This document shows positions 10,773-17,696 of a stretch of 64,000 bases of DNA, one piece after another. The notes beneath the pieces were generated by a model. It was not told the origin of the DNA and did not search any database. It worked only from the letters and a program-made list of their open reading frames with translations. Position 1 is the stretch's first letter. The number at the start of each line of letters is the position of its first letter. This DNA is from Chamaesiphon sp. (GTDB lineage Bacteria; Cyanobacteriota; Cyanobacteriia; Cyanobacteriales; Chamaesiphonaceae): assembly GCA_965246715.1 (NCBI GenBank), contig CBDFFH010000002.1, forward strand, positions 128,001 to 192,000, read 5' to 3'. Position numbers and translations under genes: made by a program.

Positions 10773-12091
10773 GTGTTAATTAAACAAGATATTTCAGACT
10801 CACATTCTTACCACCAAAGATTAAATATCGTCGATCGAGATCGAACGATTACTAAAGCCGATCGCGACCCAAATTACCTCAATCGCGATCGAGGAGCTAG
10901 TCTCGATTGCACTCATCACAGCCGTAAAAACTCTGGCGTGGCAGTCTTAGCGAGATCGCCGTCTGGCGAGTTATCAAGTTTGGGGAATGGAGTCGCTCGC
11001 CCGCACCTGATGGAGCATCTGCCGTTAAAGAGCCATCACACCAATCTTGGCAGCCTGCAAATAGTTACGCTGGAATGGCAATCGACATTTAAATTGGAGT
11101 ACTGCCCGATCGTGGCAGATTACACGATCTGCTTACCGCTATATGGTTGTAGCGATCGCAACGATCGAGTTAGTCCCGTGTCAACAGCTACTGTGATCGA
11201 TCCCGGTCGATCTTTTGCTGGGATTGCTGGTTCAGCGGGTTCCATCGCGTTCGTAGGGATCGATCGTGAGACGATCGAGAACGAGCTGGCAAAATTACTC
11301 GATCGGGCATTAAAACAACCGTTATTATTTGAGCCAACCATCGATCTCCGTACCGATTTTGGGATGAGTTTGAAGGAACTGATCGAATTTGTGGGACGAC
11401 AGCGCGATCCAGCGTTGAATATTTCATCACCCTTGATGCAGGGAGAGTTAGCAGGGGCTTTATTGGCTTGCTTGCTTAAAGGAAGTTAAAAATAACTATT
11501 CTGATGAAATCCTGTATCACAGTCAGGGGGCTTTTGCCTGCTATGTCAATAAAGCTATTGCTTTCATCGAGTCTCATCTTCAGGACGAGATCGATCTCGC
11601 AGATATTGCTGGGGCAGTGAATATTTCGCCGAGGCTGCTCCAAAAAGCCTTTGCCCAACAATATGACTGTTCGCCCATGCGATTTGTCACCCGATCGCGG
11701 CTGCAGCGAATCCGGCAGGAATTGGAGCGAGCCAGTGGAGATACCCGGATTGTGGATGTGATGATGAATTATGGCATTACCCAAGGTGGGAAGTTTGCCA
11801 AAGAATATCAGCAGTTATTTGGCGAAAAACCCTCAGATACCTTGAAACGCGCCAATCAGATCGATCGAAAACACCCATCCGCTCTGGCAAGAAATCGACG
11901 ATTTTCGCTCCGAGCAGATCGTCGGGGGAGTAGCTCCTGCAGCTCGCCGCAATCTCGATCTCCCGATCGATGGTTTCACGCTACCGCCCTTCTGGTGCGA
12001 TCCTGCGATGTGGGGCAGTTATTTACGAATGATGGGGATACATTTAACCAACCAGTTGCTGCCATCTGCGATCGCTTTGCCGATCGACTAG
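10773..12091 (+). pseudogene. AraC-family transcriptional regulator with two +1 frameshifts and a GG-leader-like C-terminal extension
   Basis: N-terminal AraC ligand-binding-like part 10773-11489. After a +1 shift near 11484 it reads NNYSDEIL..KAIAFIESHLQDEIDLADIAGAVNISPRLLQKAF..FAKEYQQLFGEKPSDTLKR (AraC HTH). After a second +1 near 11875 it reads PLWQEIDDFRSEQIVGG... to TAG 12089-12091. Confidence 0.75.
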
Positions 12092-12158
12092 CTCGAAATA
12101 AATTGAATATGCTCACATCTTGCATCAGTTTAAATCTACTATTGCTTAGCGTAGATCC

Positions 12159-12221
12159 AGGGTACCCACAAGGGGCACCCCTACAGGTTAATTGTGTAGG
12201 GGTGCCCCTTGTGGGTACCCT
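12159..12221. repeat. Perfect 27-bp inverted repeat (GTAG REP-like doublet / possible terminator)
   Basis: AGGGTACCCACAAGGGGCACCCCTACA-9nt-TGTAGGGGTGCCCCTTGTGGGTACCCT. Confidence 0.85.
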
Positions 12222-12485
12222 CAGCTTCCAGCTGGTGATCCTGTATTGGTGCCAGAGGTGAATATGCCAAATACGATCCGATCGGTCGATCTGACGTTCG
12301 CGATTGGCATTTCCCCACTCGGTTGCAACTTGTATTATGAACTCATGGAAGCACTCAACTGCTGCGCGATCGAGTTTACTACCCTTCACACCGAGTCCAA
12401 TCTATCCGGGGATGAAGTAGTCAGCAAGAGCTTGCCAGTTGAGGGATCTCCACTTTCAATTCACCATATTTTCTGGAGCAGTAAT

Positions 12486-12758
12486 ATGACTACTAATTTT
12501 TGGATCGAAATTTCTGATGATTCCGCTCAAAATGTCAGTGGTGGTTTCAACAGCGCCTACGGGAATGTTTATTTCAGCGAATACTTTAACGTTTATAAAA
12601 ACGTTTACTCTAACGTAGATCCTCGTGGTCACTTGGCAACTGCGGAGTCCGATGCTAAAGCATATGGCTATGGAACGGTCGCGCAGATCTTTACTTACAC
12701 TGAAACCACTCCTTATAGCTCTTATGCACAAGGCACCAGTATCTCAGCAAGTAAATAA
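12486..12758 (+). CDS. Double-glycine-leader precursor 1 (bacteriocin/EbfG-like secreted protein)
   Basis: GGAG RBS then MTTNFWIEISDDSAQNVSGG|; core rich in Y/S/T/A/N; upstream of the C39 transporter. Confidence 0.8.
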   Translation: MTTNFWIEISDDSAQNVSGGFNSAYGNVYFSEYFNVYKNVYSNVDPRGHLATAESDAKAYGYGTVAQIFTYTETTPYSSYAQGTSISASK

Positions 12759-12947: not shown

Positions 12948-13307
12948 ATGAAAAGCGTTGATGAGAGCTACCGTAAGGAGCCTTTAGACGGCTTTTTCTT
13001 TGTAGAGATTTCAGATTTTGCTGCTGCCGCGATTGTCGGGGGTGCAGTTGCTGGAGTGAGTGCAACCGCCTATGCGTCTGGTAATTCAAGCTTGGCTTGG
13101 ACGAATACCAGTACTAGTGCAACTCACTTGCCCTGGGGCGGATCGATCGCCCAAGGATACGGAACTGCGGTCGCGATCGGAAATAATCCATCGTCTAATG
13201 TGAATGCTTTCGGCAGCGGAGATATCGTACTGACATACAATTCGACTTACTCTACCAAAAAAAAATCGGTTTCTACCGGATATGTCTTCGCCCTCGACCT
13301 TCCGTGA
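12948..13307 (+). CDS. Double-glycine-leader precursor 2
   Basis: FFVEISDFAAAAIVGG| then an A/S/T/G-rich core ending GYVFALDLP. Confidence 0.8.
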   Translation: MKSVDESYRKEPLDGFFFVEISDFAAAAIVGGAVAGVSATAYASGNSSLAWTNTSTSATHLPWGGSIAQGYGTAVAIGNNPSSNVNAFGSGDIVLTYNSTYSTKKKSVSTGYVFALDLP

Positions 13308-13335: not shown

Positions 13336-13704
13336 ATGAAAACTACTAAATCGAGCTGTCGAGTAGTGCATCCTGACAGCTTTTGCTCAATTGAAGTCTC
13401 GGACACTGTCGCAGCCACCATCGTTGGGGGCATCGCGATTGCAGTTGGAGCCGAGTCATCTGCTGCTGGGAATTCAGGCTTTGTCTACATCGATCCAACT
13501 ACTACGGCAGAATACCTGTCTTTTGATAGTGCGATCGGCAATGTTAAAGAAGTTGCTGCCACGCTCGAACAGATGGCATCTACTTATCAGACCAGTTACC
13601 AGAGCGGCGACAAGGTGTTTGGGTTTACCAAGAAGTACCATTGCTTTAAACATCAAGCTTGGATGATGGCGAAGGGATTTGGCTTCGCCATCGAGTATCC
13701 TTAA
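13336..13704 (+). CDS. Double-glycine-leader precursor 3 (paralogue of 2)
   Basis: CSIEVSDTVAATIVGG|; core resembles precursor 2 (AAGNSG vs ASGNSS; GFGFAIEYP vs GYVFALDLP). Confidence 0.75.
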   Translation: MKTTKSSCRVVHPDSFCSIEVSDTVAATIVGGIAIAVGAESSAAGNSGFVYIDPTTTAEYLSFDSAIGNVKEVAATLEQMASTYQTSYQSGDKVFGFTKKYHCFKHQAWMMAKGFGFAIEYP

Positions 13705-13797
13705 CCGTCGCCGTACTCGTCCAGCCCTGCCCGTTCCTGAGAGTTAGTAGGGCTATTTCCCCGAATCGATCGGTAGTATTAATTGAGGCACACACTC

Positions 13798-15942
13798 ATG
13801 CCATATTCCTGCACCCTCCAACATAGTGAAGAAGACTGTGGCGCAGCTTGTCTGGCTACCGTTGCGAAGCATTATGGGCGGAACTTCACACTTGCCCGGA
13901 TTCGGGATGCGGTGGGGACGGGATCTCGCGGTACGACCTTACTGGGCTTGCGGCGGGGTGCAGAAGCATTGGGGTTTCATGCGCGCCAAGCCCAGGCGAC
14001 TCTAGACGCGATCGAGCATTTAAATCGAGCACCTTTACCTTTAGTCATTCATTGGCAGGGCAATCACTGGGTCGTACTCTACCGCCAGCGGGGGAAGAAA
14101 TATATTATCGCCGATCCGGCAGTCGGCATTCGGTATTTAACCAAACAAGAACTACTAGATGGGTGGTCGAATGGTTTGATGCTGGTGTTGCAGCCCGACG
14201 AGGAGCGATTTTACGAACAGCCCAATGATAAAGTTGGCGGATTCGGGCGATTTCTCCGCCGAGTTTTTCCGTATCGGTGGATTCTGCTCCAAGCGATCGT
14301 TATTAACATCGCGATCGGCATCTTGGCGCTGGCGCTACCGATTCTGATGCAGATCCTGACCGATGATGTGCTCGTCAGGGGGGATTTACAGCTACTGACG
14401 ACGGTAGCGATCGCGGTAATTACGATGAACTTGTTTCGGAGCGCGATCGGGTTGATTCAGTCCCATTTAGTGGGACATTTCGGTCAGCGATTGCAATTGG
14501 GGCTGACTCTCGACTATGGTTTCAACCTGCTGCGCCTGCCTTTATCCTATTTCGACGCTCACCGCAGTGGCGAAGTCATCAGTCGGTTGGGGGATGTCCG
14601 CACCGTCAATAATTTAGTCGGGCAGATCGTCCTCGGTTTGCCCAGTCAGTTTTTTATTGCGATCGTCTCGCTGGTGTTGATGCTCCTCTACACCTGGCAA
14701 CTCAGCCTCGCGGCGATCGCGGCTTTTGTCCTCCTCACACTAGTCAACCTCTTATTTCTCCCCGCACTGCGCCAAAAAACTCGCAGCCTGCTCGTCGAAG
14801 GGACGGAAAATCAAGGATTTTTAGTTGAAACCTTCCGCAGCGCCTTAGTCCTCAAAACGACGCAAGCCACACCCCAAGTTTGGGATGAGTATCAGTTGAA
14901 TTTTGGGCGACTGGCAAATCTGAGTTGGGGCGCGATGAAACTGGGCATGTATAGCTCTACGCTGACAGGGATTATCTCTAACTTAACCACGATCGGCTTA
15001 CTCTGGTTTGGGAGTTATCTAGTCATCGATCGCACCCTCTCGATCGGTCAGTTAATCTCATTTAATGGGATGAGTAGTAACTTTCTCGGATTTCTGAGTG
15101 CGGTTGTCGGTTTGACCGATGAATTTATTACCGCCCAGATTGTGATTCAACGGCTCTCGGAAGTGCTCGATGCCCAGCCAGAGGAAGCTTATACTACGTC
15201 TAAGCCGTGGGCTGATATTCCCCAAGATGCCAATATTTCTTGCCTGCAAGTTAATTTTCACCATGCGGGACGAGTCACGCTGCTAAAGGATTTCAACCTA
15301 ACTATTCCCGGCGGGAAAGTTATCGCCCTGATCGGCGAATCTGGCTGCGGAAAGAGTACGCTTGCCAAACTCATTGCTGGATTGTACCCACTTCAGTCGG
15401 GGAATATCCGCTACGGGGTATACAACCAGCAAGATTTAGCCCTAGAATGCTTGCGCCAACAAGTAGTATTAGTCGTCCAGGATGCCCAATTTTGGAGCCG
15501 ATCGATTATCGATAATTTCCGGCTTGCCTATCCCAATCTCTCGTTCGAGCGGATCGTGCGCGCTTGTCAAATTGCTGGAGCGGATGAGTTTATTAGCGAA
15601 TTACCGGATAAGTATCAGACCGTATTGGGCGAATTTGGCGCAAACCTGTCCGGCGGCCAAAAACAACGGTTGGCACTCGCCCGTGCCTTAGTCACTGCTC
15701 CATCCGTACTGATCTTAGATGAATCCACTGGCGCACTCGATCCAACGACTGAAACTGAGGTGTTGGAGCGAGTGCTGGCATCCCGCAAACAGCGCACCAC
15801 GATCCTAATTAGCCATCGTCCCCGCGTTGTGCTCCGTGCCGATCTGGTCGTCTATCTCGATCGCGGTGAGCTGAAACTTATGGGTACTCCGAGTGACTTA
15901 TTAAGCATTGCTGGCGCGCATCAAAATTTTTTGAAGCCCTAA
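13798..15942 (+). CDS. Peptidase C39-containing ABC transporter (PCAT)
   Basis: QHSEEDCGAACLA, HWVVLY and ADP C39 motifs; ABC membrane domain; GESGCGKST, LSGGQKQR and LDEST. Confidence 0.95.
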   Translation: MPYSCTLQHSEEDCGAACLATVAKHYGRNFTLARIRDAVGTGSRGTTLLGLRRGAEALGFHARQAQATLDAIEHLNRAPLPLVIHWQGNHWVVLYRQRGKKYIIADPAVGIRYLTKQELLDGWSNGLMLVLQPDEERFYEQPNDKVGGFGRFLRRVFPYRWILLQAIVINIAIGILALALPILMQILTDDVLVRGDLQLLTTVAIAVITMNLFRSAIGLIQSHLVGHFGQRLQLGLTLDYGFNLLRLPLSYFDAHRSGEVISRLGDVRTVNNLVGQIVLGLPSQFFIAIVSLVLMLLYTWQLSLAAIAAFVLLTLVNLLFLPALRQKTRSLLVEGTENQGFLVETFRSALVLKTTQATPQVWDEYQLNFGRLANLSWGAMKLGMYSSTLTGIISNLTTIGLLWFGSYLVIDRTLSIGQLISFNGMSSNFLGFLSAVVGLTDEFITAQIVIQRLSEVLDAQPEEAYTTSKPWADIPQDANISCLQVNFHHAGRVTLLKDFNLTIPGGKVIALIGESGCGKSTLAKLIAGLYPLQSGNIRYGVYNQQDLALECLRQQVVLVVQDAQFWSRSIIDNFRLAYPNLSFERIVRACQIAGADEFISELPDKYQTVLGEFGANLSGGQKQRLALARALVTAPSVLILDESTGALDPTTETEVLERVLASRKQRTTILISHRPRVVLRADLVVYLDRGELKLMGTPSDLLSIAGAHQNFLKP

Positions 15943-15992: not shown

Positions 15993-17696
15993 ATGAGCAA
16001 CCGTAACCTCCTCAATGGCAAAAGCGATCGTGATTTTAGCGACGGCAAAATGTTTACGACCAACTTCTCCACCACGAGTGGTTATATCCGCTCCCAATTT
16101 AAGGAGAGTGCCTTAAATCCGAGTGATACTTCGATAACTCTACCCGAACCGAGTGGTTCTCTAGTCGCGGCACCAGAACCGAGCGGTGCGTTAGTTCCGT
16201 ATCAGCCTAATGTCGGGGATCTCTGTCGCCAAACTACACCAGATGATTATTTGCCCTCGATCGGTCGATTTCTACCGATTTGCGGCGCAGGCATGGTGGG
16301 GTTATTTTGCATGGCGATCGGTCTGAGTTCGATTTTAAAATATAAGACTACCGTTCAAGCTTCTGCAACGATTCGGCCCAACGGCGAACTGCGGATCGTT
16401 CAATCCGCGATCGACGGTTCGGTAGTGAGTATCCGCGTGCGGGACAATCAAGTCGTCAAACCGGGAGAGATCGTCGCCACTGTCAGAGATTTACGGCTCG
16501 AAAGTAAATTACAAACCAAGCGCGCTCAATTAATCGGCGACATTCACAAAGGTAAGCAACAGATCGGTAAAATTGACGCTCAAATTCTCGCGCTCCAGCA
16601 TCAAAGTATGGGCGAACTGGAGCAAACAGATCGATCGATTGCTGGGATCGAATCCGAACGCAGTCGTGCGGAGCGCGACTATCGCGACAAACAACGCATC
16701 AGTCGCGCCGAAGTTACGGAAGCTACCGCCAATATCGAAACTGCCAAGAAAGATAAACAAGCCGCCGAGATGGAATTACTCGTCGCCAATGCTAATTTAA
16801 AATCGATTCAAGCCGCTCATCAAGCTGCGGTGGCCAAACGCGATCGTTATCAAGACGCAGGTACGGCAGGGGCGATTCCCCAAAATCAAGTGGAAGAAGC
16901 CCAACTCGCTGCCGAACAACAAGCCCAAGCCATTGCTGCCCAACAAGCGACGATTGCCAAGCAAACCCAAACCATCGCCCGCTTGCACCAAATCATCGTC
17001 TCAGCACAAGCTAGAGCGACCCGGATTCAGGTTGCCCTCGATCCCAGTCATGCCGAAGTCGAACAAATCGCCCATAAAATCGAGCGCGAACGGGCAAATA
17101 GCAAAACAACAATCGCCCGGTTCCAGCAAGAGCGCCAAAAACTGCTCCAACAACGGGTCGAGATCGCTAATCAAATTGTTACTACCAAGCGCGAAATCGC
17201 CCAAATTGCTACCGATCTCCAGCCTACCGCGATCGTTGCGCCGATCGCTGGCACGATCCAGGACTTGACACTGCGAAATAATCATCAGGTCGTACATTCC
17301 GGCGATAGTCTGGCGCGAATTTTGCCTACTGGTACGGCAATGCAAATTAAGGCTTATGTTGCCCTTGCGGATATTGGCAAGGTAAATATCGGGCAAACGG
17401 TGCAAATGCGTGTATCCGCCTGTCCGTATACCGAAAATGGCGTGTTGGCAGGGAAAGTAACTGAGGTCTCTGCTGATGCCAAGTCGAGCGATAAAACTGC
17501 TGCTAGCGCGCAGCAATTACCATCAGCAGCCAATAGCTATGCGGTCACGATCGAACCAGCTACCGCTAGTATCGGTACTGGTAAAAGTAAATGCCACATG
17601 CGCTCGGGCATGGAAGGTCGAGTGGATATTATTTCTAAGGAAGAAACCATCCTCCAATTCATGCTGCAAAAGGCGCGGTTATTAGTCAATTCTTAA
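15993..17696 (+). CDS. HlyD-family membrane fusion protein
   Basis: TM helix, IVQSAIDGSV lipoyl half-motif, long coiled coil, IVAPIAGTI; directly follows the PCAT. Confidence 0.9.
   Translation: MSNRNLLNGKSDRDFSDGKMFTTNFSTTSGYIRSQFKESALNPSDTSITLPEPSGSLVAAPEPSGALVPYQPNVGDLCRQTTPDDYLPSIGRFLPICGAGMVGLFCMAIGLSSILKYKTTVQASATIRPNGELRIVQSAIDGSVVSIRVRDNQVVKPGEIVATVRDLRLESKLQTKRAQLIGDIHKGKQQIGKIDAQILALQHQSMGELEQTDRSIAGIESERSRAERDYRDKQRISRAEVTEATANIETAKKDKQAAEMELLVANANLKSIQAAHQAAVAKRDRYQDAGTAGAIPQNQVEEAQLAAEQQAQAIAAQQATIAKQTQTIARLHQIIVSAQARATRIQVALDPSHAEVEQIAHKIERERANSKTTIARFQQERQKLLQQRVEIANQIVTTKREIAQIATDLQPTAIVAPIAGTIQDLTLRNNHQVVHSGDSLARILPTGTAMQIKAYVALADIGKVNIGQTVQMRVSACPYTENGVLAGKVTEVSADAKSSDKTAASAQQLPSAANSYAVTIEPATASIGTGKSKCHMRSGMEGRVDIISKEETILQFMLQKARLLVNS

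Follow-up and report, generated by a model that had tools for sequence, protein, structure and literature searches.

The double-glycine (GG) leaders of the small precursor peptides that are cut and exported by peptidase-containing ATP-binding cassette (ABC) transporters (PCATs) carry hydrophobic residues at positions -4, -12 and -15, and usually also at -7. In a stretch of 64,000 nucleotides of Chamaesiphon sp. (GenBank assembly GCA_965246715.1, contig CBDFFH010000002.1, positions 128,001 to 192,000; hereafter the window, in whose own coordinates positions are given), a gene for an AraC-family regulator at 10773-12091 continues past its DNA-binding helix-turn-helix (HTH) domain into a leader of this type followed by a tail, upstream of a PCAT gene. 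The window holds a frameshifted copy of this gene. In its intact relatives we predict, with moderate confidence, that the protein is cut after the GG pair by the C39 peptidase of the neighbouring PCAT, the tail being exported or discarded and a changed regulator left behind; this prediction is drawn from the likeness of the leader to those of the precursors in the cluster, the invariance of the GG pair and the gene neighbourhood.

Among described systems, the closest are the substrates of PCATs, or ABC-transporter maturation and secretion (AMS) proteins, such as PCAT1 with CtA, ComA with ComC, CvaB with colicin V, and LahT. The Chamaesiphon regulator shares with them the GG end, the hydrophobic residues at -4, -12 and -15 and the variable segment after the GG pair, and its gene adjoins that of a PCAT with intact C39 cysteine and histidine and that of an HlyD-type adaptor. 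It differs from them in that its leader comes after a complete two-domain transcription factor and has serine at -7. Judged by its predicted features, the regulator has most of what characterizes GG-leader PCAT substrates and lacks one thing, a leader at the N-terminus of a small precursor. No curated precursor family matched the extension, either in the window frame or in the C-termini of the relatives.

A precedent for a folded, protein-sized segment N-terminal to the GG site of a PCAT substrate comes from the nitrile hydratase leader peptide (NHLP) and Nif11 precursors, whose long leaders, as Haft and colleagues reportedly described in 2010, derive from whole protein domains. These leaders are about 70-90 residues long, have lost the function of the parent protein and serve peptide-modifying enzymes, whereas the N-terminal part of the Chamaesiphon protein is a full regulator with both Pfam domains. 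At expectation (E) values of up to 10, the NHLP and Nif11 families gave no match to the 81-residue frame of the window or to the C-termini of 14 relatives. Regulators coupled to secretion are known from the export of FlgM by the flagellar apparatus and from the ExsA-ExsD-ExsC-ExsE cascade of type III secretion, in which ExsA is also of the AraC family. The logic proposed here for Chamaesiphon would be the same, the state of the regulator depending on what the machine has just exported. Those systems rely on type III machines and on partners that are separate proteins, whereas in Chamaesiphon the signal and the exported piece would both lie in the regulator chain and the machine would be an ABC exporter with a protease. 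To our knowledge, neither the NHLP/Nif11 nor the FlgM and ExsA systems combine a protein-sized leader and a secretion-coupled regulator in one chain.

For the cluster as a whole, the nearest studied system is that of Synechococcus elongatus PCC 7942, where the small GG-motif proteins EbfG1-4 and the PCAT PteB are needed for biofilm (Parnasa et al. 2016, PMC4997328). That is likewise a cyanobacterial cluster with several small secreted GG-motif proteins and a PCAT; a regulator with a GG leader is not met in the accessible portion of that work (PMC4997328). HetC of Nostoc PCC 7120 is a PCAT with no known substrate. In the working model of its authors, an N-terminal cleavage product stays in the cell and acts on a transcription regulator, and the part that is exported serves as a signal to other cells (PMC10986499). 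The concept is the same; HetC offers a model without a known substrate, whereas in Chamaesiphon the candidate substrate is the regulator itself, which makes it a concrete candidate for the idea that the retained part of a PCAT substrate is regulatory. The available sections of a graspetide survey (PMC8939145) held nothing relevant to a regulator with a GG leader, and neither such a regulator nor a regulator-precursor fusion was found in the full-text literature, subscription journals lying outside the scope of that search.

The HTH part of the regulator was searched against 41 related genomes, 25 of which belong to the same genus. Close orthologues (63-97% identity, E of 1e-49 or better) were present in 15 of these 25, the genome of the window included. 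At all 14 of the other same-genus loci the sensor, the HTH, a short linker, the leader and the tail form one open frame of 403-495 codons, with the leader motif L-W-x-x-I-D-D-x-x-S-x-x-V-x-G-G, and this single frame supports the fusion to AraC that had been proposed from the window alone. When the intact protein of the relative G011 was compared with a collection of 5.8 billion proteins, 150 matches were obtained at E of 1e-10 or better, 120 of which were listed; statements on homologues below refer to these listed matches. The source names them 'AraC family transcriptional regulator' and assigns them to Chamaesiphon species. All except two of the 120 listed have a W-x12-GG element within the last 45% of the chain, in the somewhat wider form L-W-x-x-[ILM]-D-D-x-x-S-x-x-[VIL]-x-G-G followed by a tail. 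The remaining two end inside the leader (P0111) and 11 residues past the HTH (P0120), and may have been cut by contig ends. The AraC-leader-tail fusion exists and is conserved.

In the window copy, the N-terminal part of the regulator (10773-11486, forward strand, as are all the genes described here) contains the cupin-type sensor domain AraC_binding_2 (PF14525, E 4.4e-10, residues 87-234; 40 bits against a cutoff of 27). The DNA-binding domain (HTH_18/HTH_AraC) follows at about 11605-11850 in a second frame (PF12833, E 2.9e-15, residues 52-133 of the frame 11452-11880; 56.7 bits, cutoff 33.6; PF00165, 44.9 bits, cutoff 26.6). A profile of the regulator family matched the solved AraC-type domain 3mn2 at E 3e-23, and AraC_binding_2 is annotated in nearly all of the 120 listed homologues. 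The curated AraC profiles AndR and EutR were matched to their last positions (320 of 321 and 344 of 350), where the HTH ends. Beyond that point none of 15 C-termini was covered by a curated family; the extension is therefore something added to an already complete regulator. Unlike the AraC/XylS norm, these proteins do not end shortly after the second HTH, and in the 118 leader-bearing homologues listed the leader and a tail lie beyond it. Apart from its continuation past this point, the regulator belongs fully to the AraC family. The original prediction had proposed a search of intact homologues for an in-frame C-terminal GG motif, and the motif was found in 14 of 14 orthologues and in 118 of the 120 matches listed; the opposite outcome, intact homologues ending after the HTH without a GG pair, did not occur; the curated AraC profiles do end there.

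With about 370 residues of regulator before it, the leader does not open a small precursor that has a start codon of its own. A start inside the regulator gene could still release the leader and tail alone, as an ordinary precursor overlapping the 3' end of the gene and initiated at a pair of methionines in the HTH or at a rare start codon. In four of the 14 orthologues an in-frame ATG, GTG or TTG does stand just before the leader, the leader of G022 begins MWQEIDD, and conserved methionines lie about 55 residues upstream. These methionines are accounted for by the HTH itself, however, and the other ten orthologues have no such codon between the HTH end and the leader tryptophan. In the protein collection no free-standing leader and tail was found, since no protein of 30-241 amino acids shared words with the G011 leader and tail, and no longer fused form appeared, both searches being limited to shared 5-residue words. 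We consider an internal start very unlikely. The other outcome foreseen originally, that the segment is what remains of a separate precursor gene, was likewise not observed, given the ten orthologues without a start codon and the lack of a short homologue.

In order to compare the leader with those of the cluster, a hidden Markov model (HMM) was built from the 18 residues ending in GG of 39 separately encoded small genes, taken from the interval that separates the regulator from the PCAT in the window and in 12 related loci; the tails of regulators were kept out of the training. This HMM was run over the 109,424 six-frame open frames of at least 30 amino acids in the genome of the window (6.1 Mb). 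Ranks 1-3 were taken by the three precursors of the cluster (28.8, 25.4 and 23.6 bits), which belong to the training set, and rank 4 of the 109,424 by the frame of the regulator tail (21.3 bits, E 9.4e-4), aligned through to the GG pair. Rank 5 reached 11.3 bits (E 1.3), so that the tail frame is the sole match above 12 bits from outside the training set. It therefore holds the only other such leader in the 6.1-Mb genome, and it stands beside the exporter. The leader in the regulator is of the same type as those of the separately encoded precursors, and the resemblance to the three downstream precursors that had been seen by eye is borne out. The free-standing precursors of the same genomes have leaders of the form LWxEL[TD]ExQxExINGG or FxIE[IL]SDxxAxx[IV]xGG, and sequences such as LWxELTExQxExINGG and FxIELSDDSAQNVSGG are close to the LWQxIDDxxSxxVVGG of the regulator.

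Among the 118 leader-bearing homologues listed, the tryptophan at -15 and the glycines at -2 and -1 are invariant. Position -12 is isoleucine, leucine or methionine in all 118, position -4 is valine, isoleucine or leucine in 114, and the pair of aspartates at -11/-10 is present in 114. An alignment of 41 diverse members (about 40% identity to the first) has 37 invariant columns, with W369, G382 and G383 among them. The linker is more flexible, measuring 4-16 residues (median 8) from 14 residues past the FGE motif to the tryptophan in the 118 listed. Codon-level comparison of seven orthologue pairs gave ratios of nonsynonymous to synonymous change (dN/dS) of 0.00-0.23 for the leader (dS 0.3-2.4), 0.02-0.19 for the DNA-binding core, 0.11-1.10 for the linker and 0.25-0.92 for the tail; the segments are short and single values are noisy, and the ranking of the segments is consistent. 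The leader is constrained like the DNA-binding core and the tail much less. These data bear on the idea that the extension has no function and is a relic, left when the loss of a stop codon joined a precursor gene to the regulator, and since tolerated. The fast evolution of the tail, with dN/dS of up to 0.92, would fit such a relic, as would the frameshifts in the window copy and in the tail of one relative and the finding of the family in one genus only. A neutral sequence would not, however, keep the low dN/dS of the leader at that dS, nor the tryptophan and the GG pair in 118 of 118 listed regulators that are only about 40% identical. This explanation was already disfavoured, and we regard it as highly improbable.

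Translation of the segment 10700-12300 in the three forward frames, together with Pfam, shows that the AraC-family gene of the window is spread over three reading frames. Its N-terminal part stops at a TAA at 11487-11489 because of a first extra base at 11483-11484, where the window reads GGAAGT and relatives read GGAGT; this +1 insertion, evident from the alignment with G011 and from public contigs, shifts the gene to the next frame. The frame of the HTH remains open for about 135 codons beyond the end of the domain, to 12258, and callers of open reading frames therefore add a false C-terminus (…RKHPSALARNRRFSLRADRRGSSS…) to the broken gene. A second +1 insertion at 11874-11876 (ACACCCAT in the window, ACACTAT in G011) lies in the variable linker (11851-11881), between the end of the HTH and the leader, and moves the leader and tail to the third frame. 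This third frame is open past a TGA at 11843-11845 and reads NAPIRSIENTHPLWQEIDDFRSEQIVGG, then VAPAARRNLDLPIDGFTLPPFWCDPAMWGSYLRMMGIHLTNQLLPSAIALPID, up to a TAG at 12089-12091. Within it, NAPIRSIENTHP directly precedes the leader LWQEIDDFRSEQIVGG (11882-11929), the predicted C39 cleavage site falls between 11929 and 11930, and the tail or 'core' of 53 residues, with the clade motif DPAxWxxYLRxxGIxLT, occupies 11930-12091 with its stop codon. No ATG, GTG or TTG occurs from 11846 up to the leader motif in this frame, which confirms that leader and tail lie in a third frame without a start.

The window copy was aligned with the orthologue of G011, whose protein is 97% identical; relative to that orthologue a single base is added at about 11483 and another at about 11874, and the positions at which two indels had been inferred were thus right. 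Over about 13 kb aligned with G011 no other frame-breaking indels occur inside the coding sequence of the cluster, the remaining 1-bp indels being intergenic. The TAG of the window is TAC in G011, where the tail is five residues longer (YLEIN). At neither site is the extra base present in any of the public contigs of near relatives (X1, X2 and X3 at 11483; all covering contigs at 11874-11877). A public contig of 367 nt (11808-12175) is the window sequence except for a single gap at 11874, and has the same TAG and the beginning of the same repeat insertion (see below). No sequencing run containing the window's own reads was found, the best run holding 0.54 of the sampled words. Either the gene was inactivated very recently in the strain of the window, or an assembly error accounts for at least the second insertion. 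Owing to the two insertions the fusion cannot be made from the gene as assembled in the genome of the window, and the biology of the fusion applies to the Chamaesiphon regulator family. We rejected programmed frameshifting at either site (11483 or 11874), as relatives have plain in-frame sequence at these places. Contigs from RNA libraries (X22 and X23; of two further contigs, X24 is probably from DNA and X12 is from a DNA run) stem from distant relatives, match only the roughly 95 most conserved bases, at 11748-11847, and do not bear on transcription of the junction.

Downstream of the regulator lie three precursor genes, at 12486-12758 (leader TNFWIEISDDSAQNVSGG), 12948-13307 (leader GFFFVEISDFAAAAIVGG) and 13336-13704 (leader FCSIEVSDTVAATIVGG). 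All three are open reading frames recognized by the HMM, and the first has a weak match to the CTB family of bacteriocins (E 0.004, below the cutoff). The PCAT gene at 13783-15942 encodes a C39 peptidase, an ABC membrane domain and an ABC ATPase in one chain (PF03412 at 2.3e-35, PF00664 and PF00005), and an HlyD-family periplasmic adaptor follows at 15993-17696 (PF13437, 1.5e-16; TIGR01843, 1.7e-41). Residues 7-714 of the PCAT align with PCAT1 (4ry2) at E 5e-105, the catalytic cysteine included. Across the C39 domains of 13 clusters Q13, C19 and H95 are invariant, and D111 is present in at least 90%. A PCAT (66-98% identity) is found downstream on the same strand at 12 of the 14 orthologue loci, followed by HlyD in all eight loci long enough to show it, and from zero to four free-standing GG precursors lie between regulator and PCAT. 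In G002 there is no precursor at all between them, and the PCAT starts about 150 bp past the regulator stop (255 bp between tblastn matches, on a contig of 3.7 kb). In G022 two precursors are followed by the end of the contig.

A possible sequence of events is as follows. The leader would dock, like that of a normal substrate, on the C39 domain in the cytoplasm, and a cut after the GG pair would split the chain in two. One product would be a regulator of about 380 residues, now ending in the leader, and the other a tail of 5-110 residues passing into the transport path. The proportions of uncut and cut regulator would then report whether the exporter is present and free. The likeliest logic would be a capacity checkpoint, in which the uncut regulator accumulates only when the exporter is missing or saturated, and transcription of the precursors and the exporter would thereby be matched to the free export capacity. 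If so, the exporter would edit its own regulator, a direct link at the protein level from export capacity to gene expression, and the space in which PCAT substrates are sought would widen to leaders inside or at the end of large proteins.

The same neighbourhood would equally suit docking without cutting, in which the leader merely tethers the regulator to the C39 domain or competes there with the precursors, so that the regulator is sequestered or released according to the precursor load and the tail is of minor importance. Such a role would agree with a leader far more conserved than the tail, and with tails that shrink to five residues or shift frame while the leader is kept. It would explain less well why the GG pair is present in 118 of 118 listed homologues, as this is what a cleavage site needs and goes beyond the needs of a docking helix. 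Moreover, the C39 domain has kept its cysteine and histidine, so that a bound GG leader is expected to be cut, and a tail motif is kept in the clade of the window. We think docking alone unlikely. Rather doubtful, too, is a built-in pseudo-ligand, an explanation that leaves the exporter uninvolved: the sensor would bind the leaders of precursors, and the C-terminal copy would fold back as an autoinhibitory mimic until displaced by them. The ligand-binding AraC_binding_2 domain, the resemblance of the leader copy to the leaders of the neighbours and the flexible length of the linker are all in keeping with such a mimic, which we rate as quite improbable because it leaves the invariance of the GG pair, and any tail past it, unexplained.

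Among the listed homologues, tail length ranges over 5-110 residues (median 32). The tails contain three times as much tryptophan as the remainder of the protein and few acidic residues, and they fall into 28 sequence classes. These classes mostly track the regulator tree, with 14 changes for 11 classes compared with 64.9 when the labels were shuffled; class T0 is a loose single-linkage cluster, and its '10 changes' should not be counted as ten events. In the clade of the window, P..W..Y....GI.L is kept in at least 80% of 24 tails, in regulators whose bodies are 59-94% identical, which suggests that in this clade the peptide itself may have an added role. The tail might be a pheromone or a pherotype marker: a single chain would contain both a transcription factor and a secreted signal peptide, which the protease of the exporter would separate. 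Each regulator molecule would release one clade-specific peptide, giving a self-contained signalling module tied one-to-one to the regulatory state. We hold this possible but unlikely. Two further ideas about the tails were given up. An amphipathic helix was dropped for lack of a clear signal, the mean maximal hydrophobic moment being 0.440 against 0.418 for shuffled tails, and higher in 70 of 114. Kinship of the tails with the cargo of the neighbouring genes was unsupported, as tblastn of the tail against the loci matched only the regulators' own ends.

Several observations weigh against cleavage of the regulator by the PCAT. We know of no substrate with a leader about 370 residues from the N-terminus, and in 105 of the 118 listed homologues position -7 is serine; the precursors of the cluster likewise have alanine or serine/threonine there. 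The window's own gene is split over three frames. Two tails are only five residues long, the tail of G015 is a frame-shifted version of that of its relatives, and the tail types T0 and T3 occur intermingled in a single tight clade, so that the exact tail is not always under constraint. As some tails are tiny or frame-shifted, the conserved function would more likely be the encounter with the protease than the exported peptide. The regulator of G016 is not beside a PCAT; unrelated genes follow it, and the precursor-PCAT-HlyD cluster is on another contig. Related PCAT clusters with such precursors occur without the regulator in the fetched flanks of G003, G014, G023 and G020, and the fusion is therefore an accessory part of such systems and does not belong to their core.

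At the G015 locus (L025) the in-frame tail (CHAITSGTLQQVEPNG...) diverges from those of the relatives after about eight residues, and the ending of the relatives (...SSQMVFTS..LPSKLVKILF..VCFNN) can be read in an overlapping frame. This points either to a frameshift inside the tail that is tolerated or to an error in the genome bin.

The regulator family was found only in Chamaesiphon among the genomes searched. In a pattern scan of GTDB, with one genome per species, members with at least 38% identity occurred only in Chamaesiphon contigs or in cyanobacterial bins matching same-genus genomes, and the next matches, at 24-30% identity, were AraC proteins of proteobacteria. In another 400 cyanobacterial genomes from 155 genera there was no match beyond the HTH, the best having 35-38% identity and reaching query residues up to 139.

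Between the regulator and precursor 1, an alignment of seven genomes revealed a conserved non-coding block at 12259-12335, a candidate promoter or operator. It has many invariant columns (TATGCCAAATACGATC ... GTTCGCGATCGGCATTT), with ATGCC and GGCAT in opposite orientation, and is followed by a TAnTAT box and a TGGAG ribosome site. We infer that this block is the natural candidate target of the regulator. Immediately before it, at 12113-12258, the alignment with G011 breaks at a 146-bp insertion absent from that genome, a high-copy repeat with a palindrome at about 12161-12222 (GGGTACCCACAAGGGGCACCCCTAC... and its complement), between the regulator stop and precursor 1. The segment 12140-12230 has 121 BLAST matches in the genome of the window and reaches depths in the thousands in metagenome contigs, and some public contigs skip 12075-12258 or 12104-12258. 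The insertion looks like a small mobile repeat outside the regulator-exporter system.

Some minor observations concern the exporters and their cargo. The genome of the window has a second PCAT (G000:C37:67097-69241, L086), 62% identical to the first and followed by an HlyD-like gene; its flanking frames gave no matches with the leader HMM, and its substrates therefore carry a different leader. At the loci L021, L022, L027 and L029, which belong to one branch of the genus, the free-standing cargo is rich in glycine, tyrosine and asparagine and of low complexity (GGGYGYGYS..., ...YYSVYTYYPGYGYYNTQYSY), unlike the cargo of the window's cluster, which is rich in alanine, serine and threonine. Lastly, a weak chance match to the leader HMM brought up an open frame of 611 residues with at least four copies in the genome of the window (G000; C20:257876, C34:136922, C39:116651 and C43:41574) and a 298-residue piece at C2:27459, outside the window. 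The copies have identical residues at and past the aligned segment, and the frame is probably a mobile-element gene.

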